Below are positions 2,689-64,000 of a stretch of 64,000 bases of DNA, piece by piece. Below the pieces are notes generated by a model. The model saw only the letters and a program-made list of their open reading frames with translations. It had not been told where the DNA came from and did no database searches. Made by a program: the position numbers and the translations under genes. The first letter of the stretch is position 1. Each line of letters begins with the position of its first letter. The stretch comes from a virus. The stretch covers positions 14,216 to 78,215 of IMG/VR virus record IMGVR_UViG_3300048839_000424; one strand, 5' to 3'.

Positions 2689-2692
2689 ACGT

Positions 2693-5902: not shown

Positions 5903-5906
5903 TATC

Positions 5907-9260: not shown

Positions 9261-9293
9261 GTATTATGACTATATCTAGAGGCTGTTAGAACC

Positions 9294-10070: not shown

Positions 10071-10083
10071 GAGGATTTGAGCT

Positions 10084-24800: not shown

Positions 24801-25607
24801 TTTGATTGGAGCGAGTACAACCGAGATCCCAAAATGACTAAAGGATTTCCAAATGGTAAACCTCAAATAGTCTTCTCTATCCCCAAAGGAACACAAAACG
24901 GCACTCGTGCAAGGAAAGGATGGAAAGAACTAGAACCTTACCTTGACAAAGAGTTGTCACCCTTGTTAGAGGATGTAACCCCCGAACAATTAAGTGCCCT
25001 GCTCCGAGGGTTGCATCTAGGGGATGGGAGTAAATATAGAGGTGACAAGTGGAATCAAGCCTCTTATCACATTTTCACTGGAAGAAAGGTTTTTGCCGAA
25101 AGACTACAGAGCTTGTGTGTTAGACGCGGTTTTCGTTGTAATCTCTCTATTCGACAGGCTGCACCTGGAAGAAAAGAAGGGTACACACTACATATAAAAA
25201 AGACTAATGCGTGGTCTCTATGTGGAAATAAAAAAATGATAGGGCGCTCTCATATGTCCCCTTCCAAAAACATAGAACATGAGAGAGTATGGTGTGTTGA
25301 AAATGATTTGGGTACGCTCGTAACACGTCGTCGTGGAAAAGTAGCTGTTGTAGGAAATTGTATTGGGCGAATGATTCGCATTGGAAGTCAGCATGATCGT
25401 TGCTATGCGATTCACTTGGTCGCTTCGGGTACGATTGATGAGGATGTCATTGTGACCTTGAAGAAGAAGATGAAACTCGTAGAGAAAATCATGGGCAAGA
25501 GGTTGAAGGGTGAGAAGGATCAGGATGCCGTCATCGAGGCGGAAAACGACATCTCTGACCTATTTGATTCCGTCCGTGCGAATGCTCGAACTCGTAAGTA
25601 CAAGTGA
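21852..25607 (+). CDS. SNF2-family helicase/ATPase containing two inteins
   Basis: LRYYQ, GDDTGTGK|T, ITDEAS, LTATLIKN, KVIVFSRF, AEGINLQAA and Q|CIGRMIRIG motifs. Confidence 0.92.
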   Translation: MDEALKVAYEKLKEIRGRKDLALKPNKYLKDTFTGFDGQEYPFKLRYYQVQGVLHMVVMNRFLLGDDTGTGKCQPYDSLVLTDRGLLKMGEIEDWSDMTPDSFRPMSKSLHVLVDGEKLPIKSFYYGGVKSTVTVHTRYGFKNTGSQVHPMLVLRDGSHQWVQAKDLIEGDYLCIERREMSFPESEPKLIGKGPLEEVTPDFARFVGYYIGRGTLIARDQISVSQYPVNPPEVLADIIRVMGSVFNKVPSHLKGIDLSVCDTRARRWLVENGMGYLKSAYRDIPDCILQASKTSTQEFLRAFFEGAGHVDKSIELTTTSKTLGEQLQVLLLRFGVVAKREKVYSQGVYGQEGHVYWRLTICDREAEIFRDQIGFVSSRKKEALNALVDCSTPLLNTSYFYDPVVEIEQGEEEVFDIEVDDPRHCFVSNGFVNHNTAMAISSYAYVLDKEPNTKAVVLTNKSVVGQWALEFEKFTKPGMIRVIQVSGTPKKREAAYEEFKNSQGPTVMIMGYATARQDVKQLQTIKDYILITDEASAYKNPSSQIHQVVRFMANQQAKRVWALTATLIKNNLVEGYGIYSVLCPGLFPPTKNAFINSYAITRMQKIAGSNRQVPVIVGYRKDHIENFRNKIDPFFLSRSKMDVASELPVLTIREDKVALTPEQQTKYQEALDGLLEIDTTGEQKETTKLTSLIYCQQIVDHPDLIDCEGGSYKMDHLFDILTEGDLAGEKVIVFSRFRKMIDLLEKEAKKKKITSVRITGAETKEEVRKEAMQKFQDPNSDVQVCFITTAAAEGINLQAAKAIVFFDSPWSAGDYLQCLDEDTEILTQRGFVGRTSIKEDDLVAAMNTQTSEIEWQPIRSITDRPRAQDEQMYEVSTRHVNIRVTGGHRMLYRRKTLRNNVAVWPMGWEIETAEQMAVEKTHYQIPAAGEQNSKGLPLTQDQLEFIGWFLSDGSLNKSNHQLVISQAIHQPQIVDLRRCIENCGFDWSEYNRDPKMTKGFPNGKPQIVFSIPKGTQNGTRARKGWKELEPYLDKELSPLLEDVTPEQLSALLRGLHLGDGSKYRGDKWNQASYHIFTGRKVFAERLQSLCVRRGFRCNLSIRQAAPGRKEGYTLHIKKTNAWSLCGNKKMIGRSHMSPSKNIEHERVWCVENDLGTLVTRRRGKVAVVGNCIGRMIRIGSQHDRCYAIHLVASGTIDEDVIVTLKKKMKLVEKIMGKRLKGEKDQDAVIEAENDISDLFDSVRANARTRKYK
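22068..23153 (+). mobile_element. Intein (362 aa, LAGLIDADG-type remnants) in the SNF2 Walker A motif
   Basis: Begins CQPYDS, ends FVNHN followed by T; FLRAFFEGAG block. Confidence 0.92.
24300..25358 (+). mobile_element. Intein (353 aa, LAGLIDADG) in SNF2 helicase motif VI
   Basis: Begins CLDEDTE, ends VVGN followed by C; IGWFLSDGS and LRGLHLGDG blocks; visibly AT-richer than the exteins. Confidence 0.9.
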
Positions 25608-32281: not shown

Positions 32282-32596
32282 ATGTACACGTATAAAGGAA
32301 GAGTCATTAAAGTCGTAGATGGGGACACGTTGGATGTCGAGATTGACCTTGGATTTGACATCAAACACAGCATTCGAGTTCGACTGTTGAATGTCCATGC
32401 CCCGGAGATCCATTCCGTCAAGAAAGGTTCCGAGGAATATATTCGTGGTATGGAAGCCAAAGAAAAGGTTGACCAATGGGTCGCTAGCAACCCTGAAGTG
32501 AGGATCCTCACGGTCAAGGACAAAAAAGAGAAGTTCGGCAGGTACCTCGCTGAGATTTGGGACATTTCTCACACGTCTTGCCTGAACCACCTGTAA
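32282..32596 (+). CDS. Thermonuclease (SNase-like), possibly C-terminally clipped
   Basis: VIKVVDGDTL, VRLLNVHAPE and KFGRYLAEI; GAGGT RBS; stop codon lies inside the promoter motif. Confidence 0.88.
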   Translation: MYTYKGRVIKVVDGDTLDVEIDLGFDIKHSIRVRLLNVHAPEIHSVKKGSEEYIRGMEAKEKVDQWVASNPEVRILTVKDKKEKFGRYLAEIWDISHTSCLNHL

Positions 32597-32621
32597 AAAT
32601 CCTGGGGGTAGAAGCGTTTAG
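32592..32621 (+). promoter_or_regulatory. Putative phage promoter TGTAAAAA-N15-CGTTTAG
   Basis: Bipartite motif with identical 15-bp spacing at four sites, each just upstream of a start codon. Confidence 0.65.
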
Positions 32622-32633
32622 GGGGTAGAGCTT

Positions 32634-33626
32634 ATGAACAAGTTGACTAACATGACGAGCTTTGCTCGTAAGACCAAACACAAGAAGCCAAAATTCCAGT
32701 TGTACCAATTCGGTTTTAACGCCGGAACTGGCAAGTGGTTGGAAGGCTCTTGGGTGACGGTTTCCGAGGAAGACTGGATTAGCAAAAAGTCCGAGCATGA
32801 GGAGATGTGTCAACGTATCCTCATGGAGTTGAAAAATTACACCTACAACGGGTTTGGGGTTCCGCTCAACAGGATGACGAAAGAACAACGTCAAGCCTGG
32901 GAGCATTTTTCAGGGGTCGTGTTTTTTGATGTCGTTTACCCCAATAAATACATAGGCGTTTGGTCAGCAGAGATGTCCGGTAATCGCTTGTCGAAGCAGT
33001 CCGAAGAGTGGGCTCGTAAGCATGATATCAAGCTACTCCAGTGGGTCAAAGAAACGCCCCAGGGTGCGCCCCTTGATAAAGTCAAGGGGTATGACATCCC
33101 TAGTGATCTTATCATAAAAGGCTCCTCCAATAGAGAACCCGTTGACATAGGCCGTCGAATGTTTGATCAAAAGGTGGAGGATGAGATGATCCTGTTCTCA
33201 AGGATGACTGAGGTCTTAAGAGCAACCGATGCCTTGCCACCTAACTACTCATATCCTCCCGAAATCTTCGTCTCCGATCAAGTCCAGTTTTTTAGCGGTC
33301 TTGTGTTCTCACATCTTGTCTCCCAAGAAGAAAAGATTGTTCGTATCCAATGGGAAGAAAGTTGTGGCAACACACATCCATATACGAATGTCGAAAAAGA
33401 GCAAGAGCGATACGTTTGGATGCGGAACCTCGCATACAGTAAGTCCTTCGACAAAGCTACCTTTGATGACCGTTTGGCAGAGGCTCGAAAAGAGCATAAC
33501 CAGACCGCTAGAGAGGTTCTAGATTCTAGCAACGGATGTAGACTAGCTTTTGTTATCCCCAAATTCTATGAGGATGGGGCGTTTGATCCAGTTGGGGAGA
33601 AGGACTACCCTTGGGGGGAACTGTAA
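32634..33626 (+). CDS. Hypothetical protein
   Basis: 330-aa ORF lying between two promoter copies. Confidence 0.7.
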   Translation: MNKLTNMTSFARKTKHKKPKFQLYQFGFNAGTGKWLEGSWVTVSEEDWISKKSEHEEMCQRILMELKNYTYNGFGVPLNRMTKEQRQAWEHFSGVVFFDVVYPNKYIGVWSAEMSGNRLSKQSEEWARKHDIKLLQWVKETPQGAPLDKVKGYDIPSDLIIKGSSNREPVDIGRRMFDQKVEDEMILFSRMTEVLRATDALPPNYSYPPEIFVSDQVQFFSGLVFSHLVSQEEKIVRIQWEESCGNTHPYTNVEKEQERYVWMRNLAYSKSFDKATFDDRLAEARKEHNQTAREVLDSSNGCRLAFVIPKFYEDGAFDPVGEKDYPWGEL

Positions 33627-33651
33627 AAACTCGTAGGTTAGAGGCGTATAA
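33622..33651 (+). promoter_or_regulatory. Putative phage promoter TGTAAAAA-N15-CGTATAA
   Basis: Nearly identical to 34361-34390; followed by AGGAG RBS. Confidence 0.75.
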
Positions 33652-34360: not shown

Positions 34361-34390
34361 TGTAAAAACTCGTGGGTTAGAGGCGTATAG
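34361..34390 (+). promoter_or_regulatory. Putative phage promoter TGTAAAAA-N15-CGTATAG (probably a leaderless or short-leader ligase mRNA)
   Basis: Motif ends 5 bp before the ligase ATG. Confidence 0.75.
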
Positions 34391-42400: not shown

Positions 42401-44237
42401 GGCTTACTGTCCTCGATGTGGTTCAGACAAGATTGGAGACCTTCACACGTTGACGGCGTTGGCTTTCTACGGTGAAGACAAGGCAAGTACGAAGGAATTC
42501 AAGCAGCTAAGACAGAACGCCAAGAGCGCAAACTTTGCGCTGGCATATGGAGGAGGCCCTTCCGCATTGATGAGGGCTACTGGTTGTGATGAGAACGAGG
42601 GTGCAAGGCACCATAGAACGTTCAATCAGACCTACTCGGTACTAAAACAATGGTGGGATGACACGAAGTCTTTTGCCAAGAGACATGGATATGTAGCGAC
42701 GGCCTTTGGTCGTCAGTATCCGTTACCTGACATCAAGTTGCCTATCACACCGGCTGAAGAACCGGACCCACAGAAGCGGGAGATGAATCGTAAGTTTCGA
42801 GCGAAAGCGGAACGAAACGCTACGAATGGCCCGATTCAGGGTTGTATCCATCCTGAAGAGCGTATCCTAACATCACTAGGGTTCCTACCCATTGAGGAGC
42901 TTGATCGTCTAGGTCAGTCTTTTATGGTGTGGACTGGAAAATCCTGGTCAGAGGGACGGGTGTTCTCGTCTGGTCTGAAAGAGGTCCGCAAAACAACACT
43001 GGATTCTGGGCGTGAGCTAAAAACTAGCCCTGACCATAGATTCCTAACTTGGCAGAGAGGTGTTTTAGGGTGGACCCCTCAAAGTGAGCTATCCACGGGG
43101 GACTGGGTTGCTATCAATTCGAAGGACATTAGTCTCCTACTAGGAGATGGTAGTGAAAAATCACTATGGCTTGGTTGTGGTGACACGGCCCCACCTGAAT
43201 TAATCAAGTGTGTAGGGGAGGTGGTCAGAGCGTCCTCTATTTGGGCTACCCTAACAGCACCAGAAAAGTCAGCGGTGTCTAGGCTCATGGTGGGGTCTGG
43301 AAGCAAGCCTCAATGTGTAAAATACCTGAGTCGAGTACCTGAATCCGAGGCCCCTGCATTCTTGTGGGATTACCTGGAATACGATTGGGAGAGAGTGACC
43401 ACCCTTGAAAATCTCGAAGAACAGGTCGGGATGTTTGATATCGAAGTGTTCGACAAGGAGCACGCTTTTGTAGCTAACGGTGTCGTAGTCCATAACTGTT
43501 CAGCGGACCTGACGAAATTGGCAATGGGTCTGATCTACAAAGAGGTCAAGAAACGCGACTGGTTCGAGAAGGTCCATATGATCATTTCGATCCATGACGA
43601 GTTGGTGTTCGAGATTGATAAGGACATCTTGGCGGAGGCGCTAGAGGTCTTTCAGGACATCATGACTCGTAACAAGGCGGTTCTACAACTCAAGTGGCCC
43701 GTGCCTTTGACTACCGATTGTGAGATCGGGTATGACTGGACCGTCAAATGGAATCTCAAGGACTTTCAAGCCCGTCGAGTTCGTTCTGATGGTGTTCAAG
43801 TCGATGAGAAGGGGAAGCCCGATGGCAAAGTGTGGCCTGAAGAGTTCATTCGTATCTTCGGAAGTCGATATGGCTTCGCAGATTTGCCTATAACGGATAG
43901 TAATACTAAGCAGGATGAAGAAAGCACGTCCAACATACAAGCCTCTCAAGAGCCCACGGCGCCCTATCAAGAGTCCAAAGGCGTAACCCCTAGCGTAGCA
44001 CCCCTCCAAGTGGAGAAGCCACAGCGAGGCGACAGCTACGTTTTCCAGTTACGGACTTTGAGCATTGGTGTTGCCGATAGACTCGCCCAAGTCATTGTTC
44101 AATGTGAGGGTCGAGGTACAAATCTGTTGGAGATTCGCACTCCGACGGGAGAAATTATTGCTCCTGGGCCAGAGAAGATCTACGTGAACCCGTTGGAGTT
44201 CGCAACGGTTGCTAAAATCCACGGTTTGTTAGGGTAG
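39465..44237 (+). CDS. polA: Family A DNA polymerase (3'-5' exonuclease plus polymerase) containing two inteins
   Basis: AIDLETTG, HHARFD, YAASDA, TDTGRYT, motif A CDFGGVELRI, motif B RQNAKSANFALAYG, motif C IHDELVF. Confidence 0.96.
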   Translation: MEDFLNWSEEERRPKVQKKPWMDHKKMVLGTVDNLDDIIDECIKSGRYAIDLETTGLNKNSYQVTITEGRTKDQIVGVCLSPDGNVGYYLPIRHRKGEEHNIPVSRVERALRKLVESNSVATFHHARFDQEFLQFSGGNNPIGTWDDPKKWDDTLILTYLINTREHNKGLKHQSKVQLGFEMIEIDELFPEDHKGGYDFSELDPSWEPVLWYAASDAICTYCLYEKISPIVLKGTSERKAQDQVYLLEKMCLPATRWMERVGINIDQNVVIDLIRLGQKEFFTCLEETYDFLNANLGRKVEPGWFSLLRAKKNLDDVDFNISDQIEEFRKEAKREGMDALDEKGHYLVLKQHNGEWPEKYDILSRPQLGPLFEELEIPDLARTEKSGQVKTTQDEIDRLFQKFGDQYPFLPKIKRLGELQKALGTYLISLRRDVGPDGCLHPYYNQLGTDTGRYTTPSSDKPQLDGGTSFPVHGTPATYDTSRPACLLGIRKAVKARKGKVLAACFAEGSLVSTKRGLIPVEQVEDTDEVLTEDGWKTVSWAGYTGDKNTIAIQTQKGFELQVTEDHLILIAGEKGFSWKEAKDLQSGDWVVQVSGHPIGQSDKLPETPWSSKTISVVQEKRYPLKTPSYMTEGLAEFLGRFMGDGSISHDNESPVSVNIALGLDVNELLPSLNRTAKALFDREFVHKGRGDVTISSRVLARWLCLITNKNKDVTELEVPQAILRGGENHTAAFLRGLFDADGSIKNRKGDNITLWVTSTKMSQQVQLMLLHQGIQVRRVSCSRITNFGSIQGWEISISGIKNLDRFKERIGFLTPRKTERLNRLLASGRNRDMSEFFPLSLAKQAVICPRNEKTRRVFTNGRRKNRVSRHLLNAALHHQEDLNMEWMHLLLDGPLLFDTVVHTSQVGIQKVYDVTVPEGQKLQVNGLLAHNCDFGGVELRIATNLSREPKWMKEYFHCSSCDLIFDNGDGESTPIPPPAYCPRCGSDKIGDLHTLTALAFYGEDKASTKEFKQLRQNAKSANFALAYGGGPSALMRATGCDENEGARHHRTFNQTYSVLKQWWDDTKSFAKRHGYVATAFGRQYPLPDIKLPITPAEEPDPQKREMNRKFRAKAERNATNGPIQGCIHPEERILTSLGFLPIEELDRLGQSFMVWTGKSWSEGRVFSSGLKEVRKTTLDSGRELKTSPDHRFLTWQRGVLGWTPQSELSTGDWVAINSKDISLLLGDGSEKSLWLGCGDTAPPELIKCVGEVVRASSIWATLTAPEKSAVSRLMVGSGSKPQCVKYLSRVPESEAPAFLWDYLEYDWERVTTLENLEEQVGMFDIEVFDKEHAFVANGVVVHNCSADLTKLAMGLIYKEVKKRDWFEKVHMIISIHDELVFEIDKDILAEALEVFQDIMTRNKAVLQLKWPVPLTTDCEIGYDWTVKWNLKDFQARRVRSDGVQVDEKGKPDGKVWPEEFIRIFGSRYGFADLPITDSNTKQDEESTSNIQASQEPTAPYQESKGVTPSVAPLQVEKPQRGDSYVFQLRTLSIGVADRLAQVIVQCEGRGTNLLEIRTPTGEIIAPGPEKIYVNPLEFATVAKIHGLLG
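40977..42260 (+). mobile_element. Intein (428 aa) with LAGLIDADG homing endonuclease, in polymerase motif A
   Basis: CFAEGS...LLAHN|C; LGRFMGDGS and FLRGLFDADG blocks. Confidence 0.95.
42843..43496 (+). mobile_element. Short intein (218 aa, endonuclease largely lost) in the NGPIQG|CSAD motif of the polymerase
   Basis: CIHPEE...TSPDHRF...VVVHN|C. Confidence 0.92.
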
Positions 44238-52148: not shown

Positions 52149-52838
52149 ATGGCTACTTTCGACAGCAATTTTTCCGCCATTCTAGCCTTGATGGCTGGGG
52201 GGTCAGGAGCGTTAGTAGCCGTACTTACGGCTGGCAACACGACGGGCGATAACGCTATCGTCGTGAGCAATCAACCCAACGCAAGGATTCAGGGTGAAGA
52301 CTCTAACATAGCCAACGCTGGAGATTTGAATCTTCGAGGTGGTAACACTACGGCTGGGGATGGTGGGGATGTTGTGATTTCGGCGGGACTTGGTTCCGTC
52401 AATGATGGCCAAGTCATTATCAACGGAGAGGTTCAAATCAACGGGGACTTAACATCCGACTATCTCCGTTATGGGACAGGGACACCCGAGGGGGTGGTAA
52501 CCGCTGATGTAGGCACTCTCTATAGAAGGTTAGACGGGACGGTTGGAAATACCCTGTACACGAAAGTCTCTGGGGTAGGGAACACAGGATGGATTCCTGT
52601 AGGGCCACGAGTATGCCAGGACTTCATTGGGGATGGTGTTACCAGTGGGTTTGTTACCACGAGACCTTACATTATCCGGGCTTTGGATAACTTGAAGCCT
52701 ACTGTCTATTGGAATGGACAAAAACTGCGAGATGGGCTTCTCAACGATTTTGTGTTCACTCCACCAAACACGATTAATATGACTATCACACCTTTGATTG
52801 GAGACATCATCTCCATCGAATTTTTACCCGCAGACTAA
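52149..52838 (+). CDS. Short fibre/appendage virion protein
   Basis: LVAVLTAGNTTG and GTGTPEGVVTADVGTLY modules; C-terminal VYWNGQKL..DF domain. Confidence 0.6.
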   Translation: MATFDSNFSAILALMAGGSGALVAVLTAGNTTGDNAIVVSNQPNARIQGEDSNIANAGDLNLRGGNTTAGDGGDVVISAGLGSVNDGQVIINGEVQINGDLTSDYLRYGTGTPEGVVTADVGTLYRRLDGTVGNTLYTKVSGVGNTGWIPVGPRVCQDFIGDGVTSGFVTTRPYIIRALDNLKPTVYWNGQKLRDGLLNDFVFTPPNTINMTITPLIGDIISIEFLPAD

Positions 52839-52853
52839 CAGAGGAACTGAAAC

Positions 52854-55800
52854 ATGGCCGCAACTTTAATTCGTCACATTCAGATTCGTAACCAGGGGGT
52901 CTACAATGACACTATTACCCCCAACGTTACGAACTTTGAAACAAACCCAACCACCCTCCGAGACGACGTAAACAACCTCGTTTCGGCAATTAAGAATCTC
53001 AAGGGAGCATCGAACAACTGGTACGATGATTTCGACGGTTCTGCTGACAACTTGCGTCCCGTAGCCACCTTGGGTACGGACCTTGCCACTGTCGAGGACA
53101 AGCGATTCCTTTTCCGCAACCAGCTTATCAACGATGTAACTGTTGGCGCTGGTAACAACTATGTCATCCTTGGTGCCGGTGAAATCCCATCGGCTCCTTA
53201 CGATGTGGCGGCGATTGTTACCACCACGGTTGGTTCGGTAGCGGCTTTCCATGCGGGTACTTTCGGTACCCACAGCTTGGCTGAAATTGCTGGTCCGAAT
53301 GCATTGAACCCCCTCAACTTGGTCACCATCCGTGACGCAACCACTTTCGACAGCATTACTTCGGGTGGGCGTGAGGTGTTCGCTCTGTTCCAGTATGAGC
53401 AGAACGTAGACGGTGGGTCCATCACAACCACAACTCCTAACCGCGTTCAGCTTTCGTTCGTTCGTTCCAACGCTGGTGGTACGGACCTTGAGGCGGTTCC
53501 AGTGGCCGACATCGAAGGGCGCGTCATCAACTACGCGAACCCCGTCCGTGTTGCTTACTTGAACATTCCTGAGTGGGCGTTCATCACGGGACTTTTCGTT
53601 GACCAGGCAGCGGCTACAGACGTAACTCTGACCAATGCCATCGCCAACCAGAGCGGCGAGGCCCCACAAAACCAGAACATCGACGTTGCAGTTGCTTCGA
53701 CCTTCTCTTGGGATTTCCTTGCAGGTTCCGGTGGGTCGTCCATCGCCAACTTCGCCAACAATGCCGGTGTTGCTACCCTCACCCTCGGATCTGCGGGCAC
53801 AGCCGTAACCACGGTTGAGGGTACGACGTTGGATATCAACGTCACCGCACCTGTTACGATTGCAAGCAGCCTTGTGGTCGAGGACGGTGGTAACCCTGAC
53901 GTTCGTATCGCTGGCGCAGCGGGGTCGGGAACGATTGATACTGCCACGGGTGCTCTGTCGCTCGTAGGTGCCTCTGGGTTGAACGCAACGGCTACCACTG
54001 GTAACGTTGCCATCACAAGCACAGCGGCAGCAGTGACCATTGACGGAGCCGGGTTGGTAGAAATCAACTCCTCCGGTGCGGCCATCAACATCGGTAACGA
54101 TGCTGACGCTTTTGCAATCAATGTTGGTACCGGCGCGGCGGCTCGTGCAATCACGGTTGGTAACGCAACCGGAGCTACTTCGGTCAATCTGGACTCGGGT
54201 ACTGGAGGGTTCACCTTCGACTCGACAGTTGGCGGTGGCGCAGCTTTCGCTACGGTTACGACCAGCGGGGCTGATGGTGATTCAGTATCTTGGTTTGTAA
54301 GTGATCTTGATCCTTCGGCGGGTGCAGGTGTTGCCGCTCCGGTGGGTTCGATGCTTTGGAGAGACCAGGGTGGTGCAGGGACCGTAGGTCAAGTCTGGAT
54401 TAAGACGGGCTCGGCTGATACTGCATGGGAGCAGGTTCGTACCGGAACTTCGGGGGCTGATACCCTCCAGACAGCTTACGAAAATGGAAACACGATCGTA
54501 ACCGACGCCGGAAATGGTCCTTTGGACGTTTCTGGGACCGAGGCTATCAGCCTCGATGCTGGTGCAGCATCGAACTTCACCGTCACAGGTGGAAACCTTG
54601 TGTTGGAGACAGTCACCTCCGGTTCAGTTGATGTCAACTCCGCAGCAGCGGTCACGATTGACTCGACCACGGGAATGTCCCTGACTTCGGGGGGTACGGC
54701 TAGCTTCCAGTCCGCTGGAGCGATGTCCATCCTTACCCAAACCGGGTCGGGTAACCCCATCACGGTCTCCGCTGGGTCTGGTCCTACGAATACCGTAGGT
54801 GGTGCTCTGTCTCTGTCATCAGGTAACGGCAACGGCACTGGAAACGGTGGTGCGGTAACTGTCACTGCTGGGGCTGGTGGTGCAACGGGTGTTGGTGGTG
54901 ACATGACCCTTACCGCTGGTGCAGGTGGGTCTACTTCCGGAAACGGTGGTAACCTTTTACTAGTTGCGGGACTTCCCGTTGACGGCAATGGTGGTATTGC
55001 GGCCCTCGCTGGGCGTGATGGCGTAGGCACTGACCGCGATGGTGGCAGTGCAGCACTAGCTGCTGGTGATTCTACCGGATCTGGGAGTGCAGGTTCAATT
55101 AGCGGTCAAGCCGGAGATGGTACTGCAACAGGGGATGGTGGTGATGTCATCTTTGATGCCGGTGATGGTAATCGAGCAGGTAACGTCAATCTCACCGCCG
55201 GTAACGGCCTCTCTACCGCTGGTGGTAACCTCAACTTCAATGCCGGTAACGGTGCTGGAGCAGGTAACGGTGGTGGCACGGTTACCATTAACTCCGGTGG
55301 TGCAGCCGATGGTAATGGTGGTGACATCAGTCTTGTCGCTTCCGCAGCAACAGGAACGAACCGCGATGGTGGTGATGTCTTCCTGAGTTCCGGTTTGAAC
55401 ACAGGAACGGGTAACGCGGGTACGATTCAGCTTCGTACACCCGCTGGGGGTGCAGCGGTTGGACAAAGCTGGCAGGTCGCTCAGTTGAATAACCGTGGTA
55501 CGGGTACCGGAGGTGGAGAAGTCATGGGTCTGTACACTGGTACAGCGGCTCCTACACATACGGCCCCAACTGGTTCGTTGTTCCTGTTTGATAACAACTC
55601 GACTGGAGCGGTGTATGTCAACGTTTCCGCTGGTGGTTCTGGTACTACCTGGCAGGAACTTACGACTGCGGCATCTACCGCTAGCCGTTTGTTCTTCCAG
55701 GACACGGTAGCAAGTGCTGTTTCCGCTGGTAACCCTCTGACGGGAACAGACATGACTGGAGGCGTTCTGCCCACCAAGCCCGCATCGATCACCAACTCTG

Positions 55801-55961
55801 CGACATTCGCAACCTTTGCTGAAGTCTACATCAATGGTGTGCTTCAGTTCAACGGTGCTGCTAATGACGTAGACTACGCTGCGGGTACGGATATCAACCT
55901 CGTGCTCGCTTCGGTTTCGATTGGAGACGTGGTAACTATCATCTACTACAACAATATTTGA
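52854..55961 (+). CDS. Gly-rich tail/capsid fibre protein
   Basis: 1035 aa with repeated GG.(V/I).L.AG.G beta-turn units; C-terminal VYINGVLQ..DVDY domain. Confidence 0.7.
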   Translation: MAATLIRHIQIRNQGVYNDTITPNVTNFETNPTTLRDDVNNLVSAIKNLKGASNNWYDDFDGSADNLRPVATLGTDLATVEDKRFLFRNQLINDVTVGAGNNYVILGAGEIPSAPYDVAAIVTTTVGSVAAFHAGTFGTHSLAEIAGPNALNPLNLVTIRDATTFDSITSGGREVFALFQYEQNVDGGSITTTTPNRVQLSFVRSNAGGTDLEAVPVADIEGRVINYANPVRVAYLNIPEWAFITGLFVDQAAATDVTLTNAIANQSGEAPQNQNIDVAVASTFSWDFLAGSGGSSIANFANNAGVATLTLGSAGTAVTTVEGTTLDINVTAPVTIASSLVVEDGGNPDVRIAGAAGSGTIDTATGALSLVGASGLNATATTGNVAITSTAAAVTIDGAGLVEINSSGAAINIGNDADAFAINVGTGAAARAITVGNATGATSVNLDSGTGGFTFDSTVGGGAAFATVTTSGADGDSVSWFVSDLDPSAGAGVAAPVGSMLWRDQGGAGTVGQVWIKTGSADTAWEQVRTGTSGADTLQTAYENGNTIVTDAGNGPLDVSGTEAISLDAGAASNFTVTGGNLVLETVTSGSVDVNSAAAVTIDSTTGMSLTSGGTASFQSAGAMSILTQTGSGNPITVSAGSGPTNTVGGALSLSSGNGNGTGNGGAVTVTAGAGGATGVGGDMTLTAGAGGSTSGNGGNLLLVAGLPVDGNGGIAALAGRDGVGTDRDGGSAALAAGDSTGSGSAGSISGQAGDGTATGDGGDVIFDAGDGNRAGNVNLTAGNGLSTAGGNLNFNAGNGAGAGNGGGTVTINSGGAADGNGGDISLVASAATGTNRDGGDVFLSSGLNTGTGNAGTIQLRTPAGGAAVGQSWQVAQLNNRGTGTGGGEVMGLYTGTAAPTHTAPTGSLFLFDNNSTGAVYVNVSAGGSGTTWQELTTAASTASRLFFQDTVASAVSAGNPLTGTDMTGGVLPTKPASITNSATFATFAEVYINGVLQFNGAANDVDYAAGTDINLVLASVSIGDVVTIIYYNNI

Positions 55962-56510: not shown

Positions 56511-59500
56511 ATGCCATTAAATCCGCAACTGTCCCGTCGTCCCGCTGTTGACGCAAGTATTGTCCAAGCGGACACTGTACGAGGTTACGACGCCCCCAAT
56601 GCCGCTGAAACCGAGGCGGATCTGATCATCTCGAATGGTCGAAACGCGGGTACGGGCGCAGTTGCGGATATTCTCATCTGGAATCGCACGGACTTGGTGA
56701 CTCAACCAATGTTCGTGCTCGCCCCAGGGTCCGTACTGGCATCCTCGACCAAGTTCGAGGTCTATGCCGGTGCAGCGGTAGATCCGAATGGGGTTGTAAC
56801 CAGCCCCATTGGCTCTCTCTATCTGTCCAACAATCCAGCCGCATTGTGGCAAAATCAGGATGGTGGAACGGTATGGAAGAAAATCTCCGACGATCTCGGT
56901 GGTGAAAATCTAGCGCAGACGTTGGCTATTGGGAACACGTCGGGTAGCAATAATATCATCATGTCCAAGACCCCCGGTGGGCCTTTGGTCTCAGCGGCGA
57001 TTTTAGGCGAGTCTGTTGCGGATGGTACCAATGGGGGTAGTTTACTTCTTGGGGGAGGTGAAGCGACCGGAGTCACTGGGAATGGTGGCCAAGTCATCAT
57101 TTCATCGGGGTCGAGTCTCAATGCGAACTCCGGGTCAGTAATCATGGCTTCTTTCCCTGCATCAGCGGCATCAGCGGCATCAGGGCAGGTTTCAGTGCTC
57201 ACGGGTGATTCAGCCCTTGGTCCTTCTGGAGACATGATCATTGGCACTGGAAACGCCAATGGGGACGTGGGGGACATTCTTCTTGCCACAGGGGCTTCGG
57301 CAACGGGCAACGGTGGCAACATCGCTATTGGAGCCTTTGGTGGTCCTTTGAGCGGTGGTTCGGTGATTATCGCAGCGGGTACGCCCACAGGAGCGGGCAC
57401 GATTGCTGGTGGTCAAGTTACCATCACTTCCGGTAATGCCACGGGAGCGGGTGGAGGTGGAAATTTGTTCATCACGGCTGGGAACAGTGGTCCAAGCGGT
57501 GGTGTTGGTGGGGAAATTATTCTGACCGCTGGTACTGCGGTCAATCCCGTGAATAACGGGCAGATTCGTGGTATTGGTACCTTTGTAGCGACGAACTATC
57601 GTCGTGGGGCATCGGACCCGAATACGTTGGGACTATCCCCTGTTGACGAAGGTCATGTGTTTCAGGACAAACGATCCGGGAACGGGGCGCTTTGGGTCAA
57701 CACGAATGGTTCTCCGGTTGGGTGGAAGAAGTTAGCCTTTGCGGCTGACTTCGTGAACTCCTTTGCTCGGTTGTCTTACGGAACATGCACACCTTCGGGA
57801 GATAGAACGAACCCTGGTGATGTACAGGATGACTTGAGTGATTTTGGGTTGTTCGAGGGAGCGGAGATTCTTGAACTCGCAGGTGGTGTCCAATCCAGAA
57901 CCGTAGACGAGTACGGACCCCTTAACTTGTTCTCTACCGCAGCAGCAGGTGATGGTGCTGGTTGGAGAATCATCAACACGGCAGCGGGGAATACCAGCGG
58001 ATTTCAAAAGAGACAGCGGTTTCTTGCGGTCTTTAAGCTCTCTCTCCCACAGGACATCAACACTCAACGAGTTGTTGTAGGGTTTTCGAGCGAAAACTTA
58101 CAAACCCACTTGATCAACAATAATCCCGGTGGTGAGTATGTCCTAGTCCAAATCCCTCTGTCTAACACTTGGAGAGTATTTACACAAGGTCCGGGAGGTT
58201 CTTTGGCTCAAGGGCTACCCTCCACCATGTTCGCTGGATTGGATGTACCTCTCTACTGCGTCTTTGACTTCACAGATCCGACCACCATTAAAGTTCAGAT
58301 GCTCGATGAGGGGTTTAACCTCATTCAAGAGCGCACTTTGACCGGGGCCAACTTGGCGTTTGGCCCACAGGACTCTACCAACCTGTTTCCCATCTTTGGC
58401 ATTTACCAAGATGCAGGGCCTACACCGCTAGGGTTGAAGTTCTATTCCGCGAATTTAATCGTCGAAGCCGATCAGATTCTTTCCGCCGCTGGGCTAAGCT
58501 CCAATCCAACCTTGGAGCAAGTTCTCATCGCAGGGAACACCACTGGGGCAACCCCAATTATCTTCGAGCCCGGTTCGTTCATCACGACTTCAGATGGGGC
58601 TACAGGAACCAATCTCAGTATCACTACGGGGGATCCAACAAACCCCGCTGGTAACTCAGGTAGCGTTTCCATCTTCAGTTCCAATATAACCGATCTCGCA
58701 AACGTTGGAAGTTCGGGGGATATATCGATCCAAACGGGTCAACATATCGGCCTTGGTGGATCTGGGTCTATCGTCTTGCGAACCGGGCAAGTTACCACCC
58801 CCGGTCAACAAACTGGAAGCATTCAGCTTCGAGTCAGTCAGTTCCCGACAACGGGAGTTTTCCCCGGTCAGTTGAATCTTAATGGTCAGGATGTCGTAGG
58901 TGCTGGAGACTCTGGTGGAAATGTAACCATTGATGCTGGTGGGTACGTAGGTGCTTTGGCTGGTAACGGTGGAAGTCTGTTCTTACGAGGTGGTCAGAAC
59001 ACAGGACCAGGACCAGTAGGTGGTGTGACTGTTAGCACTCCCGGTACTGCATTGGGTACGGGAGGCCCTATTTTCATTGGAACAGGGGTAGCGGCTTTGG
59101 GCTCGGGAGGGGTGACCATTGAGAGTGGTGATAGCACTGGTCCTGGGGCTACCTCGGGTAAGATCGATATCATCGGTGGCAATGCACCTGTCGGGACTGG
59201 AGGAGCGATTGCTATCACAGCAGGGAATGGGCTAACGGGTGGTCAAATCGACGTTACGGCGGGTACGTCAAGCTCTGCAAACGGGCCAAATGTAACAGTC
59301 ACGGCGGGGGACTCCTTGGTTGCTCTGGGGGTTGGAGGAAGCATTGTTCTCAACCCTGGAAATGGTCCTGGAGGTGCTGGGGAAGTCCTTATCAACGGCA
59401 AGTTGAGCGTCACAGGATTGATCGATCCTACGGGACTTGTGCTTGACGCACAGGGGGTCGTTCCGTATGCACCAGCGATTGGTCAAGGATTGCTTTGGGT

Positions 59501-61145
59501 GAACTCTGCCACGGATGAGTTGTTCTTCACGAACTCCGGTGGTACGACGAATATTTCCGCAACGGCACCGGCAACGAGTTTAGCAACGCTGTCGGATGTC
59601 ACTCTGGGGGTGTTAAATCCTGGGGATGTACTCACGTACAACGGAGCATTTTGGATCAATGTACCTGGAGGTGGAAGCCCTGATGATCTTGCAACGGTCT
59701 TGGCGACTGGAAATGCAACGGGTGCCAACTCGATTCTGATTGAGAATTCGCTCGGTTCTAGCTTGACTTCGGATGGGGACTTGGTAATCAATCCTGGAAG
59801 CAATCCTGGGGAGCAAATCGTTCTTGATGGGTTGCGTTGGCCGCAAGTCGATGGTCTTGCTGGAGAGGTATTGACTACGGACGGGGCTGGGAATCTTTCT
59901 TTTGCCCCTGGTGGGGGTACACCACCCCTTTCGAGCGTTTTGCTCACTGGAAATGTGACCAGCGGTTCAGACGTTGTACTTACGGGTGGTAGCGTTCTTC
60001 GAGGTGCGGATGCAAGTCCGGGAGGAGATGCCACCATTCGAGGTGGCAATGGGTTTAGCCCTGGGGATAACGGTGGGAATCTTTTCTTGAGAGGCGGGAA
60101 CGCGGTCAATCCAGCATTCGGTGGAGAGGTCTTGCTGACTTCGGGAGATGGTGATACCGCTGGTAACTTGACGGTACAGACGGGGGTCTCTGTAACCTCT
60201 CCTTCTGTGCTTCAAATCTTGGCGAATGGGGCTACTAATGGTGTGGGTGGTATCCTTGGTATCAAGAACGGAGATGCGGGTGATGGTGCTGGTGGATTCA
60301 TGCAGATCCAAGGTAGCAATGCAACGGGTCCAGTTGGAGGAAACGGTGGCATTATTGACATTCAAGCTGGTAATGCAGCGGTAACTGGAGATGGTGGTCT
60401 GATTCGGTTGGATGCTGGGAATGCAGACGACTCTGGGGACGGCGGTGCTCTTTCATTTGAGGCTGGTATGGGTGGGGTTTCTACGGGAACAGGTGGCAAT
60501 ATAACGATTCTTGCTGGAGCCAGAAGAAACACGTTAGGTACAGACTTCGCTGGAGCAGTCACGATTAGAGGTGGAGGGACCGTGGGTGCTGGGGCTGGAA
60601 CTCAAGGTGGTCCAGTTACTATTCGAGGTGGGGATATCGGCACCCCCCTCCCATTTCCAGGAATTGCTAATCCTCAACGGGGTGGGGATGTTCGGATTGT
60701 TGGAGGTTTCGGTGGTACCAATGGGGATGGTGGAACATTAATCCTCAACGGAGGAAATGGAAACGGCACCGGACTCGGAGGCAATGTAAACATCACTCCC
60801 GGATCTGGTGCTACCAACGGACAGATTAACCTCAATGGCGCCGTGTTCCTAACGAACAACGACGTTGGGGGTATTCAGTTTGGAACCTTCAACCTGAATG
60901 GATATGTAACAGACGTGTCAGGGAACATAGTATTTGACTACACCACGGACTTTTCTTTCACTGACTTGCTCTCAAACCCCAGGTTCATCTCCGTAGACAT
61001 CACAAGCTCTGTCCTTCGACATGCTAGAGTGATTTCTAGCACAGGGGTGTCCGTAACCGTTCGATTCTATGACGCTACAGGGGCAGCCCTCACAAGTTTC
61101 GGATTCGTGGGAACCGACTTCTTGCGAATCCTGATTGTTGCCTAA
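56511..61145 (+). CDS. Long Gly-rich fibre protein
   Basis: 1544 aa; four L..(V/T)L..GN..G modules, many GG.I.I..G repeats and a LATLSDV..GDVLTYNG..W fibre repeat. Confidence 0.72.
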   Translation: MPLNPQLSRRPAVDASIVQADTVRGYDAPNAAETEADLIISNGRNAGTGAVADILIWNRTDLVTQPMFVLAPGSVLASSTKFEVYAGAAVDPNGVVTSPIGSLYLSNNPAALWQNQDGGTVWKKISDDLGGENLAQTLAIGNTSGSNNIIMSKTPGGPLVSAAILGESVADGTNGGSLLLGGGEATGVTGNGGQVIISSGSSLNANSGSVIMASFPASAASAASGQVSVLTGDSALGPSGDMIIGTGNANGDVGDILLATGASATGNGGNIAIGAFGGPLSGGSVIIAAGTPTGAGTIAGGQVTITSGNATGAGGGGNLFITAGNSGPSGGVGGEIILTAGTAVNPVNNGQIRGIGTFVATNYRRGASDPNTLGLSPVDEGHVFQDKRSGNGALWVNTNGSPVGWKKLAFAADFVNSFARLSYGTCTPSGDRTNPGDVQDDLSDFGLFEGAEILELAGGVQSRTVDEYGPLNLFSTAAAGDGAGWRIINTAAGNTSGFQKRQRFLAVFKLSLPQDINTQRVVVGFSSENLQTHLINNNPGGEYVLVQIPLSNTWRVFTQGPGGSLAQGLPSTMFAGLDVPLYCVFDFTDPTTIKVQMLDEGFNLIQERTLTGANLAFGPQDSTNLFPIFGIYQDAGPTPLGLKFYSANLIVEADQILSAAGLSSNPTLEQVLIAGNTTGATPIIFEPGSFITTSDGATGTNLSITTGDPTNPAGNSGSVSIFSSNITDLANVGSSGDISIQTGQHIGLGGSGSIVLRTGQVTTPGQQTGSIQLRVSQFPTTGVFPGQLNLNGQDVVGAGDSGGNVTIDAGGYVGALAGNGGSLFLRGGQNTGPGPVGGVTVSTPGTALGTGGPIFIGTGVAALGSGGVTIESGDSTGPGATSGKIDIIGGNAPVGTGGAIAITAGNGLTGGQIDVTAGTSSSANGPNVTVTAGDSLVALGVGGSIVLNPGNGPGGAGEVLINGKLSVTGLIDPTGLVLDAQGVVPYAPAIGQGLLWVNSATDELFFTNSGGTTNISATAPATSLATLSDVTLGVLNPGDVLTYNGAFWINVPGGGSPDDLATVLATGNATGANSILIENSLGSSLTSDGDLVINPGSNPGEQIVLDGLRWPQVDGLAGEVLTTDGAGNLSFAPGGGTPPLSSVLLTGNVTSGSDVVLTGGSVLRGADASPGGDATIRGGNGFSPGDNGGNLFLRGGNAVNPAFGGEVLLTSGDGDTAGNLTVQTGVSVTSPSVLQILANGATNGVGGILGIKNGDAGDGAGGFMQIQGSNATGPVGGNGGIIDIQAGNAAVTGDGGLIRLDAGNADDSGDGGALSFEAGMGGVSTGTGGNITILAGARRNTLGTDFAGAVTIRGGGTVGAGAGTQGGPVTIRGGDIGTPLPFPGIANPQRGGDVRIVGGFGGTNGDGGTLILNGGNGNGTGLGGNVNITPGSGATNGQINLNGAVFLTNNDVGGIQFGTFNLNGYVTDVSGNIVFDYTTDFSFTDLLSNPRFISVDITSSVLRHARVISSTGVSVTVRFYDATGAALTSFGFVGTDFLRILIVA

Positions 61146-61769
61146 TCAGTCGAGGACACAGACCCCGATCGAACCCCCTTGGGCCACATCAGGCTCAAGG
61201 GTGCTCGAAGCATACATACTGAGACAAGTCCGACCAGACCCGCACACGTTCGGCAGAGCAGGGTTGCAGAACATCGCACAGCAAGCCGTGTCCGTGGGAT
61301 CGTCGCACAAGATTCCGTCATTCGGGAAGCACTGTCCGTCCACACACTCGGTAAAGTCCAGGGTATCAGCGGGGCTTCCCGTGGCCTCAACACCGCAAGC
61401 GGAACCATCCGTACCGTCCGACTGCGGATTGACAAGAGGCTGACAGGTGAAGATGCGCTTGTCATTTACATCGTCCCATCCAGCCGGAGCACAAGCGAGA
61501 TCTCCATCACAAGCGGGCTCGTTGTTGATGGTCAGGTGAGGGTTGCAATTCTCGCCCATCTTGGGCAGAACATCGCCGTCACCGTCTCCGTCGCCATCCC
61601 CGTCACCGTCTCCGTCGCCGTCGCCATCACCATCGCCATCTCCGTCACCATCACCATCGCCAGAGGTCTCGGTATCACCAAAACCCTCGTCCTCCATGTC
61701 GATGAAGTTGCCACGGCATCCCGTGGTAAGAACTAGGGCGATCACTGCAAGATTGGTCAGATTCTTCAT
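61146..61769 (-). CDS. Myxobacterial-type Cys-rich lipoprotein with (GD)n linker
   Basis: [18 protein letters not shown] lipobox; GDGD tract; CNP..C..CCAMFC..IGVC; AAGGAG RBS. Confidence 0.85.
61572..61661 (-). repeat. Coding (Gly-Asp)n repeat, about 15 units
   Basis: GGNGAY repeats with varied synonymous codons. Confidence 0.9.
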
Positions 61770-61789
61770 TGGATTTGTCTCCTTAGCTA

Positions 61790-61819
61790 CTAAACGACGA
61801 TAACTCCCTATTTTTTACA
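61790..61819 (-). promoter_or_regulatory. Putative phage promoter TGTAAAAA-N15-CGTTTAG on the minus strand
   Basis: Reverse complement reads TGTAAAAA-atagggagttatcgt-CGTTTAG, upstream of the 61769 start. Confidence 0.65.
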
Positions 61820-61861
61820 TCGGAGACGAGATTTTCTTACATCAGCGCGATTCGCGCATAT

Positions 61862-61896
61862 AAAAAGCCCCGGAACCTGTGAAATTCCGGGGCTTT
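61862..61896 (-). terminator. Intrinsic terminator
   Basis: AAAAA-GCCCCGGAA-loop-TTCCGGGGC-TTT; T tract on the minus strand after the 61922 stop. Confidence 0.85.
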
Positions 61897-61921
61897 CGGT
61901 AGCTAGGTTAGGTTTGTGAGG

Positions 61922-62830
61922 TCACTGTGGGATGATGCACTTGCCGAGCTTGCCAAGTGGGTCTGGCGTCCCCTGGGGGTAAATCGCCACACATTCGACA
62001 CCCGTAAGGCCAGCATCCGCACACTGCTGGTCTGGGTTCGCGGAGTTGATGTCACACAGAGCCGTGCAACAAGCCTGGGTGCTGGGGTCAACATCGGGGC
62101 AGTTGTCAAGACCAACATTGGCTGGGTCTTCGCACATGGTCCCCGTCTGGCAACAGTTGGCGCACACACACGAATCACCGACGCTACCAGGCATACCTGT
62201 ACCGGGTGGAACACACACGAAGGAGTCTGGAACTTCAGGATCTCCCGTGTACGCAGGGATGCAAAGCAGGGTACCACCACAAGCCGAGTTGATTGGATCG
62301 CATGGGAGCAAGCAGAGGTTCAACACGCCCTCATTGATACCCGCGAGACAAGCCGTACCCGACTGCGGGCACGAAGGTGCGTTCTCTGGACCAACACATT
62401 CTTCAACGCACTGACCAATGCCAGTGTCAGGATCTTGACCCCAACAGAAGCCGGTTGCGTCACAGGTGTCCTGGCCGTTCACACCGCCTTCGACGAAGGT
62501 ACAGTCCGAACCTGGGGGCTGATCACCAGCGGGAACACAGACATTCGCATCCCATGCCGCACCGATTGGATCAAGAACGATTGGGGTGCATTTCTCACCG
62601 GCTGGGCAGTCCTCCACCCAAGGGTCACACATGGGAATAGACATGGCATCCATCGGAGGAATGAAGGACGTGTCATCCACGTCATCATCCCCGGTGTCTG
62701 TATCCCCGCCTGAGCTATCTCCGTCCGAGGTGGTATCTCCATCACCACCCTCGTCTTCGGATTTATTCTGACAAGCGAAAAGACAGAGTACAAGTGCGCT
62801 TGCGATGCTGATGTTTTTGAGTGTACACAT
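61922..62830 (-). CDS. Myxobacterial-type Cys-rich lipoprotein
   Basis: MCTLKNISIASALVLCLFA-C lipobox; acidic G/D/T linker; CDPWVEDCPAGEKC, CDP..C and CCTALCD repeats; GAGGA RBS. Confidence 0.85.
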   Translation of the reverse strand: MCTLKNISIASALVLCLFACQNKSEDEGGDGDTTSDGDSSGGDTDTGDDDVDDTSFIPPMDAMSIPMCDPWVEDCPAGEKCTPIVLDPIGAAWDANVCVPAGDQPPGSDCTFVEGGVNGQDTCDATGFCWGQDPDTGIGQCVEECVGPENAPSCPQSGTACLAGINEGVLNLCLLPCDPINSACGGTLLCIPAYTGDPEVPDSFVCVPPGTGMPGSVGDSCVCANCCQTGTMCEDPANVGLDNCPDVDPSTQACCTALCDINSANPDQQCADAGLTGVECVAIYPQGTPDPLGKLGKCIIPQ

Positions 62831-62847
62831 TTTGATGTTTATTCCTC

Positions 62848-64000
62848 TCAACCAACGAAACAGGGGTATTTTACGTCTACAGTCCCCACGTCTTTGAGTT
62901 CGTCACATGATGCCCCACAGAGTTCAATCGCTGTGTAGCTGGTATCGGTATAGACCCACCCGTCTGATAGGCCATCACAGGTATATACGCCTTGATGGTA
63001 GGTGAGCTTCATGGTCATTGGTGGAATTCGCACTTCCACCTTATGAACCTGATTTGCATCCGGTGCGGGATCCAGAGGAACAACACAGGAAGGGATTTCT
63101 CCAGCAATAGACGCCAAGGCATCCTGGAGTTCGCTGAGATTTTCCGCGTTGTAGAACGAACCGTCTAGGGGGTCCGATGGAGTCTTGGGGACACCTCCTA
63201 CATCCGCGACCTCGTTGAGCTTTTCATACGGGTTGATGTCCTTGGGATTTCCCGGTGCCCAATTACACTCCAAGGCTCCACCATTGTACTGCGCACAGGT
63301 CTCTCCAGCCGCAAGGTTACAAGCCGGATCGGAACCGAACACACCACAAGCGGTCTTGCTCGGCGTGTGGTCTTGAATACCGATGCCCACGACGAACGTA
63401 GGAATTCCGTTATTTAGGTATGCATCCTGAACTACGGTCGCTACATCATCATCATAGGTCTCGAATCGCTCATAGAAGGGAGCATTGGTCTCTACAGCGG
63501 TTTTATTGCAGTTGGCGGCACCATCCGTAACTAGAATAATGAACGAACCCGCTTCATTGTTGGAGGCAATGAGCGCGTCTACAGCAGCGGTCAATCCGAA
63601 AGCCGTTGGGGTTGCTCCCTTGGCGTCCGGGTCCGTAGACACGGAGTTTTGAGCCGGGAGAGCCATGAGAATACTGTCCGAGGCATCTAGTTGGATGTTT
63701 GTAGTCAGCGTTGCACTAGTCGTGCAAGAACCATTTCCGCTGACTCCTTTATTGGGGAACAGTTTTGATCCGAAGAGGATGCTTTGGTCGTACTGCGTCA
63801 CCGTTGTTTCCACGACGCCGTAGAGACCATTCCAGCGCGTCACGTTCGGAGCGATATTATTTGTCCACATGGACCCTGACTTGTCCAACACGAGCACAAC
63901 ATCGGGAGGTGGGACTTCGAGAGTGATATCAAAATCTTCACAGGGGATGATATCATCACCGTCACCATCGCCATCGCCGTCGCCGTCTCCGTCTCCGTCG
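62848..64000 (-). CDS. VWA (MIDAS) domain Cys-rich protein with (GD)n linker, CglB-like; 5' end lies beyond the window
   Basis: VLVLDKSGSM (DxSxS), GATPT, IILVTDGAANC, TFVVGIG; frame stays open to base 64000 through DGDGDG repeats. Confidence 0.85.
   Translation of the reverse strand, partial: DGDGDGDGDGDGDGDDIIPCEDFDITLEVPPPDVVLVLDKSGSMWTNNIAPNVTRWNGLYGVVETTVTQYDQSILFGSKLFPNKGVSGNGSCTTSATLTTNIQLDASDSILMALPAQNSVSTDPDAKGATPTAFGLTAAVDALIASNNEAGSFIILVTDGAANCNKTAVETNAPFYERFETYDDDVATVVQDAYLNNGIPTFVVGIGIQDHTPSKTACGVFGSDPACNLAAGETCAQYNGGALECNWAPGNPKDINPYEKLNEVADVGGVPKTPSDPLDGSFYNAENLSELQDALASIAGEIPSCVVPLDPAPDANQVHKVEVRIPPMTMKLTYHQGVYTCDGLSDGWVYTDTSYTAIELCGASCDELKDVGTVDVKYPCFVG

Follow-up and report, generated by a model that had tools for sequence, protein, structure and literature searches.

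Bor and Lom of phage lambda are envelope proteins encoded by morons. The term moron denotes an independent transcription unit that has been added to a phage genome (PMC3594210). In phage T5, llp lies immediately downstream of the receptor-binding gene pb5, and its product Llp, a lipoprotein made early, shuts off the receptor FhuA; a similar mode of action is assumed for Cor proteins (PMC9586334). On the bacterial side, CglB of Myxococcus xanthus is an outer-membrane lipoprotein comprising a VWA domain with a MIDAS (metal ion-dependent adhesion site), a small β-jellyroll domain, and 17 Cys residues; it acts as a MIDAS-dependent gliding adhesin and co-occurs with the Agl–Glt gliding machinery (PMC9946355). 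Outer-membrane lipoproteins, CglB among them, are exchanged between Myxococcus cells (PMC4488436). Here, we examine three genes at the end of a viral DNA stretch of 64,000 nucleotides (hereafter, the window), which represents the last 64,000 bases (positions 14,216 to 78,215) of the 78,215-bp IMG/VR record IMGVR_UViG_3300048839_000424. The genes encode two Cys-rich lipoproteins, termed LP1 and LP2, and a lipoprotein with a VWA domain, referred to as VWA. On balance, and with modest confidence, we favour a reading in which the cluster is resident in the phage, VWA and LP2 stem from host protein families, the three products are exported as envelope binding proteins, and their effect is, in general terms, a remodelling of the host surface.

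Organization of the lipoprotein gene cluster

LP1, LP2, and VWA form the sole minus-strand block of the window and converge with a plus-strand open reading frame (ORF) of 1544 residues. LP1 (61146..61769) encodes a protein of 207 residues, 15 of them Cys, in which a signal peptide, the lipobox LTTGC, and an acidic (GD)n linker precede a Cys-rich domain of 141 residues. The 302-residue product of LP2 (61922..62830) contains 31 Cys residues; its LFAC lipobox is followed by an acidic linker and by a disulfide-rich domain of ~230 residues. The VWA gene (62848..64000) is cut at its 5′ end within the Gly-Asp (GD) linker; its product combines a C-terminal β domain and a Cys-rich insert with a VWA domain whose MIDAS is complete. 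The original prediction had described two Cys-rich lipoproteins with lipoboxes and GD or acidic linkers alongside a GD-linker VWA protein with an intact MIDAS, all of which could be seen in the ORFs between 61146 and 64000.

The LP2 start codon (ATG at 62830, preceded by a GAGGA ribosome-binding site) lies only 17 nt past the VWA stop codon, so that VWA and LP2 are likely to form one operon; P0121, a protein 99% identical to LP2, begins at the same position. Past LP2, an intrinsic terminator could be found on the minus strand (61858..61897), formed by a GC-rich stem of 16 bp and the U run that follows it, with a folding free energy of −32.3 kcal/mol (z −4.65) that was equalled by 0 of 200 shuffled sequences. 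No clear terminator was found downstream of LP1. Between the terminator and LP1, a promoter-like motif, TGTAAAAA-N15-CGTTTAG (61790..61819, minus strand), ends 21 nt upstream of the LP1 start and is followed by an AAGGAG ribosome-binding site. The exact motif occurs twice in the window, at 32592 on the plus strand and at 61819–61790 on the minus strand, with 0 occurrences expected in shuffles. When variants of the form TGTAAAAA-N15-CGT(A/T)TA(G/A) are included, there are four copies, all located just upstream of start codons. The three upstream copies, all on the plus strand, are found at 32592..32621 (exact, preceding a gene at 32634), 33622..33651 (a CGTATAA variant, preceding a gene at ~33660), and 34361..34390 (one mismatch, preceding the gene for an NAD-dependent DNA ligase at 34396). 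The claim that the promoter of the last gene is the same as that of phage genes at 32.6–34.4 kb was thereby borne out, with four copies where none would be expected by chance. With a terminator after LP2 and a phage-type promoter before LP1, the layout reads as a VWA–LP2 operon, a terminator, a promoter, and then LP1.

Residence of the cluster in the phage genome

The record stops at window position 64000, within the VWA gene. A host origin for the contig end, as a stretch of chromosome flanking a prophage or reached through a chimeric join, was conceivable, given that the cluster sits at the contig end, is the only block on its strand, and has cellular relatives, and that the reading ends at 64 kb. 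The original prediction had itself named an att site near 61.1 kb or a chimeric assembly as what would overturn it. Neither was found. The stop codon of the 1544-residue ORF, which ends at 61145, touches the stop codon of LP1 (61146–61148), so that the junction has no intergenic space and leaves no room for an attachment site.

Base composition was compared at third codon positions, where the GC fraction (GC3) is 0.536 for VWA, 0.561 for LP2, and 0.606 for LP1; the 18 phage genes used for comparison average 0.546. Cellular segments homologous to VWA (n = 181), in contrast, have a mean GC3 of 0.945 and a minimum of 0.63, and the median GC of cellular VWA loci is 0.70. The cluster genes have fully taken on the composition of the phage.

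Independent contigs from two other studies span the junction. In a sediment metagenome, the putative fibre, LP1, LP2, and VWA are all carried on one contig of 16,492 bp, which aligns to window positions 57634–60349 and then, past 871 unlike bases, to 61143–63942 at ~90% identity, while ~10,044 of its bases extend past the window end. The depth of this contig is 23.1, in line with the 22.1–24.3 of the other contigs of the sample that lie on the upstream phage region 52000–57577. A wastewater contig likewise bridges the junction (window 61055–62124). The truncated end of VWA falls within GD-repeat DNA, to which many foreign contigs are attracted, and the assembly break at 64000 is probably due to this repeat. 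Spikes in depth at 61.2–62.0 kb and 63.6–64.0 kb were discounted as a signal, being GD-repeat cross-matches from other organisms. With abutting stop codons, phage-like GC3, a phage promoter on LP1, and bridging contigs, it is very probable that the three genes are long-time residents of the phage, as had been proposed, and not a chimera or a host flank.

Homologues of VWA

The window VWA protein matches the Pfam VWA family with an E value of 4.6e-6. Its full-length relative P0001 (445 residues, 94–97% identical to the window copy) has a signal peptide and the lipobox ILASC at residues 17–21. The MIDAS is complete, with DKSGS at residues 39–43 (D39, S41, and S43), T130, and TDG at 158–160 (D159), and these residues are invariant or nearly so in 18 aligned family members; the same alignment contains 8 Cys columns that are invariant or nearly invariant. 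An AlphaFold model (predicted local distance difference test score, pLDDT, 79.5) shows a VWA fold followed by a C-terminal β-rich domain at residues ~305–380. The best neighbours of this model in the PDB by Foldseek are the pilus-tip adhesins PitA, SpaC, and RrgA, followed by BatB and integrin I domains. The Gram-positive pilus-tip adhesins (PitA 7w6b, SpaC 6m48, and RrgA 2ww8) and the integrin I domains have the VWA fold with MIDAS in common with the phage protein (Foldseek E 1e-9 to 1e-6), but the likeness is confined to the VWA domain, with 13–18% identity and low template modelling (TM) scores over the whole model.

By sequence, 312 homologous proteins could be found at E ≤ 0.001; among cellular members, the top matches reach E values of 1e-49 to 1e-51 with 94–97% coverage and 30–39% identity. 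Those that carry a name are from Nannocystis, Nannocystaceae, or Myxococcales. When one genome per species was scanned, 129 relatives emerged, of which 80 were kept; all 80 loci belong to Nannocystaceae or Myxococcota, namely Nannocystis, Enhygromyxa, Plesiocystis, and related metagenome-assembled genomes, with several copies per genome. Scanning of metagenomes yielded only host-type homologues, at 32–39% identity.

The closest described relatives of the phage protein form an unnamed family of Nannocystaceae lipoproteins, annotated only as 'VWA domain-containing protein', with homology over the full length (E ~1e-50, 30–39% identity). Like the phage copy, members have a lipobox, a low-complexity linker, a VWA domain with MIDAS, and a C-terminal Cys-bearing β domain, and the same Cys columns are invariant. 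The phage protein differs from this family in lying on a separate long branch that is common to three metagenomic relatives, in its GC3 (0.54 versus 0.94), in its GD linker where Nannocystis copies have a Thr/Pro-rich one, and in an extra Cys-rich insert of ~26 residues, which among the 18 aligned sequences is otherwise present only in P0042. This cellular homologue and an LP2 homologue, P0137, are both found on NCBI contig(s) of 55,515 bp, and the two may be neighbours.

In a phylogenetic tree, the window VWA, P0001, P0002, and P0003 constitute a long, well-supported branch, the metagenomic P0002 and P0003 being ~50% identical. When the tree was rooted with six CglB-like proteins from other Myxococcota, the phage branch fell inside a Nannocystaceae clade of 70 cellular members (SH-aLRT, the Shimodaira–Hasegawa-like approximate likelihood ratio test, 100; branch 1.59), where it is placed weakly beside a paralogue group of Enhygromyxa and Plesiocystis (support 42). 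A tree in which all cellular copies were held together was not rejected (approximately unbiased test, p = 0.49), and nested and sister positions both fit. Amino-acid ratios (GARP/FYMINK), employed as a proxy for the GC of the relatives, gave no discrimination.

LP2 and LP1

LP2 also belongs to a large family. An alignment of 19 sequences contains 24 invariant Cys columns, and 28–45 matches per genome could be found in N. exedens, N. punicea, P. pacifica, and E. salina, with best E values of 1e-57 to 1e-75; LP2 clusters in the Atlas are mostly from Myxococcota. Automatic names within the family, for instance 'ribulose-phosphate 3-epimerase family protein', seem to have been wrongly assigned. 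The LP2 model (pLDDT 76) had no significant match in the PDB by Foldseek or VIA-align (Z ≤ 3.1); the resemblance to known structures is limited to parts that look like small knottin, colipase, or Dickkopf modules. P0121, whose longest contig (16,492 bp) is of the same size as the sediment contig, differs from the window LP2 at 15 residues, 13 of which fall within the linker or signal peptide, leaving only 2 for the 230-residue Cys domain; the nucleotide identity of that contig is ~89.5%. At ~10% nucleotide divergence, this pattern indicates that the folded domain of LP2 is under purifying selection, while the linker drifts freely.

Taken together, the family relationships make it probable, to a high degree, that VWA and LP2 originate from paralogous families of envelope lipoproteins of the Nannocystaceae. 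The VWA/LP2 cassette likewise points to a member of this family, as judged from sequence, as the likely host of the phage.

For LP1, only three distant homologues of the Cys-rich domain were found (P0147, P0149, and P0150), all metagenomic and all with the same layout. A search of 61 Nannocystaceae genomes did not recover the domain, and derivation of LP1 from the host is accordingly not supported. The original prediction, which had taken GD-repeat, Cys-rich lipoproteins to be typical of Nannocystaceae-type myxobacteria, thus holds for VWA and LP2 and is not supported for the Cys-rich domain of LP1. The module made up of the LP1 signal peptide, lipobox, and GD linker has matches in 20 of the 61 genomes, including Enhygromyxa salina, and none in the type strains of Nannocystis or Plesiocystis; being of low complexity, these matches are a weak hint on the host lineage. 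Weak hints also tie LP1 to the LP2 superfamily, namely a faint resemblance at the C terminus (17% probability in hhalign) together with feature scores of 0.85–0.87 in the Atlas, which serve as leads only.

The possibility that the trio is a copied host operon was rejected, as an LP2-like gene lies within 10 kb in only 2 of 162 cellular VWA loci. One of these two, in Nannocystis sp. RBIL2 (L026, 7129–13470), has three tandem VWA lipoprotein genes, a further ORF, and then a gene for an LP2-type Cys-rich lipoprotein. Judged by eye, the intervening ORF resembles a GH18-type chitinase. This arrangement could be a clue to the native function of the VWA and LP2 families.

Relation of VWA to CglB

Among curated families, the best match of the phage VWA protein is the NCBIfam model for CglB (NF033757), with 58.6 bits (E 5e-16) for the window copy and 55.3 bits for P0001, as compared with an equivalog cut-off of 200 bits. 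For both, the alignment covers only profile positions 81/82–208 of 402, and Nannocystis homologues of VWA score alike. No CglB above the cut-off was found in four Nannocystaceae genomes, where the best matches (~50 bits) include members of the phage VWA protein's own family; none was found in 151 sampled Myxococcota genomes either, so that this sample gave no positive control.

In build, the two proteins are alike: each is a lipobox lipoprotein with all five MIDAS residues and many Cys residues that are likely to be in disulfides, and the C-terminal β-rich domain of the phage protein may correspond to the small β-jellyroll domain of CglB. CglB has 17 Cys residues in 416 (4.1%), whereas the phage protein has 13 in 445 (2.9%); the phage protein is from a separate paralogue family, and a link to Agl–Glt is described for CglB. 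The description of VWA as a CglB-like adhesin, given in the original prediction, accordingly stands for architecture and does not extend to orthology, in view of the low score and the partial profile alignment. As far as sequence goes, the phage VWA is CglB-like in build only and is assigned to another, Nannocystaceae-specific paralogue family.

Distribution among known phages

Relatives of VWA and LP2 were absent from 50,697 GenBank phage records when searched by tblastn. In IMG/VR, single-protein pattern and profile searches with VWA, LP2, the putative fibre, and P0147 returned no relatives, nor did a back-translated pattern of the P0001 signal peptide return a match. PHROG gave no match for the cluster proteins except low-complexity matches to the GD linker, and PADLOC defence models gave no family match at E ≤ 0.01 for LP1, LP2, or P0001. 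A literature search, which was not exhaustive, returned no report of such phage genes or of phages of Nannocystaceae. To our knowledge, no phage of this family has been described.

Neighbouring genes and identity of the contig

The ORF that converges with LP1 (56511..61145, plus strand, 1544 residues) is rich in Gly, Thr, and Ser and is a putative tail fibre gene; a second putative fibre gene (52854..55961, plus strand, 1035 residues), considered here for context only, is Gly-rich. Neither has a match by sequence in Pfam, PHROG, or PDB. The fibre assignment is putative and draws on composition and on a C-terminal tip that has been swapped. In the sediment relative, the 871 unlike bases replace window 60349–61143, corresponding to the last ~265 codons of the 1544-residue ORF, between flanks that are ~90% identical, and the replaced end looks like a swap of a receptor-binding tip. 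Beside it, LP1 of the sediment variant is still ~91% identical. The convergent position of the cluster relative to these neighbours was correctly given in the original prediction; their naming as fibre genes is best kept provisional.

CheckV puts the completeness of the 78,215-bp record at 15%. A baseplate wedge gene opens the contig (phrog_6, E 4e-30; L175 3–2447), and phage-type genes along it encode GroEL, a DnaB-type helicase, the NAD-dependent ligase, an intein-bearing SNF2 helicase, and an intein-bearing PolA. The GC fraction is ~0.46–0.56 along the whole window. The contig is from a very large phage with a baseplate. Its PolA is 45% identical to that of the 485-kb uncultured phage LR745208.1, in which no homologue of the 1544-residue putative fibre gene or of the ORF at 52149–52838 was found. 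No sign of lysogeny was seen in the 78 kb of the record, no sigma factor among 52 window ORFs scanned, and no Glt-type genes in the window.

Several other features of the contig were observed. The SNF2 helicase gene (window 21852–25607) is split by an intein with a LAGLIDADG domain, and the family-A DNA polymerase gene (39465–44237) contains two inteins. The baseplate wedge gene is followed by a row of giant ORFs of 814 to 1891 residues without family match (window 1–15759), which are probably baseplate or fibre proteins. Among the ORFs at 9294–56508, one match each was found to Peptidase_M78 (IrrE-like), a cold-shock domain, and a PG_binding_1 domain, and five ORFs match DNA methyltransferase families.

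Possible function of the envelope lipoproteins

The lipoboxes, the complete MIDAS, and the adhesin-like VWA model make export of the three products as envelope binding proteins likely. In the scheme that we propose, VWA and LP2 would be transcribed as an operon ending at the strong terminator, and LP1 separately from a promoter of the phage type, also present before the DNA ligase gene and two further genes. The proteins would be made during infection, their precursors being exported by the host Sec pathway and lipidated at the lipobox Cys. Disulfide bonds would then form in the periplasm, and long acidic GD linkers would tether the mature proteins to a membrane, probably the outer one, where the MIDAS head of VWA and the disulfide-rich modules may bind a ligand. 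By occupying or masking a surface component of the infected cell, the lipoproteins could keep further phages, as well as progeny freed at lysis, from unproductive adsorption. Superinfection exclusion or receptor masking ranks first among the specific purposes considered, although only as a tentative assignment drawn from our analysis.

Likeness to the known exclusion lipoproteins is what recommends this purpose. Llp (T5) and Cor (T1, phi80, and related phages) are phage lipoproteins encoded beside receptor-binding or fibre genes, and LP1 adjoins a putative fibre gene; Llp is made early, and the LP1 promoter is of the kind that also serves a replication-type gene, that for the ligase. The cluster proteins are multidomain, and VWA and LP2, unlike Llp and Cor, are homologous to host families. 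Comparison with morons, such as those for Bor and Lom, gives a similarly mixed result. LP1 is likewise self-contained, with its own promoter, a terminator upstream, and a position on the opposite strand after tail-fibre genes. Unlike morons, it matches the phage in composition, its promoter is of the phage's own type, and the record carries no mark of lysogeny.

A number of points weigh against the reading favoured here. Llp and Cor are small, single-domain proteins without sequence similarity to the cluster proteins, which are of 207–445 residues. If the fibre tip sets the receptor, an exclusion protein matched to that receptor would be expected to change with it; LP1 stayed as it was when the tip changed, which is a further difference from Llp and Cor. 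The neighbouring genes are only putatively fibre genes, and the function of the cluster is read from architecture and gene position. The sequence is read only up to window position 64000. Finally, the phage GC of ~51% is far below the median of 70% for Nannocystaceae loci, so that the host link is carried by the gene families by themselves.

The main competing explanation is that, through the phage-made VWA adhesin and the Cys-rich proteins that accompany it, the infected cell adheres differently to substrate, prey, or kin; a cell held in the swarm, or stopped from gliding, would free its progeny beside new hosts. We regard this as possible, if doubtful. A VWA fold with complete MIDAS is closest to true adhesins, the best NCBIfam match is to a MIDAS-dependent gliding adhesin (PMC9946355), and the host families are large and diversified in the manner of surface adhesins. 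The constancy of LP1 next to a changed fibre tip also fits a role that is independent of the receptor. Against this, the score of VWA falls well short of that of a CglB orthologue (58.6 versus 200 bits), no CglB above cut-off was found in the four Nannocystaceae genomes, Glt-type genes were not seen in the window, and the explanation is built on sequence. A stronger form, in which a phage of ~500 kb infecting gliding, social myxobacteria produces its own versions of the adhesins on the host surface and so directs how the infected cell behaves, is unlikely.

Very unlikely is a true replacement of CglB, in which the phage would supply a functional orthologue that plugs into the Glt outer-membrane platform of the host. 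The common architecture of a lipoprotein with a VWA domain, MIDAS, an apparently similar small β domain, and many Cys residues, together with the NCBIfam match at E 5e-16, would fit such a role, but the score is far under the equivalog cut-off, the alignment is limited to the first half of the VWA domain, and VWA groups with the Nannocystaceae paralogue family, which a fully supported (100%) branch sets apart from the CglB-like outgroups. Scarcely more than a marginal chance is given to the lipoproteins passing to neighbouring kin by TraAB-type exchange to exclude or sensitise there: a precedent is described for Myxococcus (PMC4488436) and all three cluster proteins are lipoproteins, but nothing in the sequences speaks to transfer, and sorting to the outer membrane is only putative. 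Last, the idea that the contig end is host DNA or an artefact is extremely improbable, having been largely refuted already by the closed junction, codon usage, promoter, bridging contigs, and repeat-associated break described above.

Implications

Envelope lipoproteins of phages are already known; what is new here is a large, adhesin-type cassette, paralogous to host proteins, in a huge phage of probable myxobacterial host. Surface remodelling by such a cassette would widen the range of known phage envelope proteins from small exclusion lipoproteins, such as Llp and Cor, to large multidomain copies of host adhesin-type families that are under purifying selection. The cassette also provides a concrete and testable host assignment, to the Nannocystaceae, for a very large uncultured phage. 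For the bacteria, two large and unstudied families of Nannocystaceae lipoproteins are flagged as likely players at the phage–host interface, whether as receptors, adhesins, or partners. If adhesion or gliding were indeed altered, the phage would be one of few examples of a virus influencing how bacteria behave socially, and steering by adhesins, through halted gliding, gluing to kin or prey, or passage to neighbours, would amount to viral manipulation of that behaviour by way of envelope proteins.

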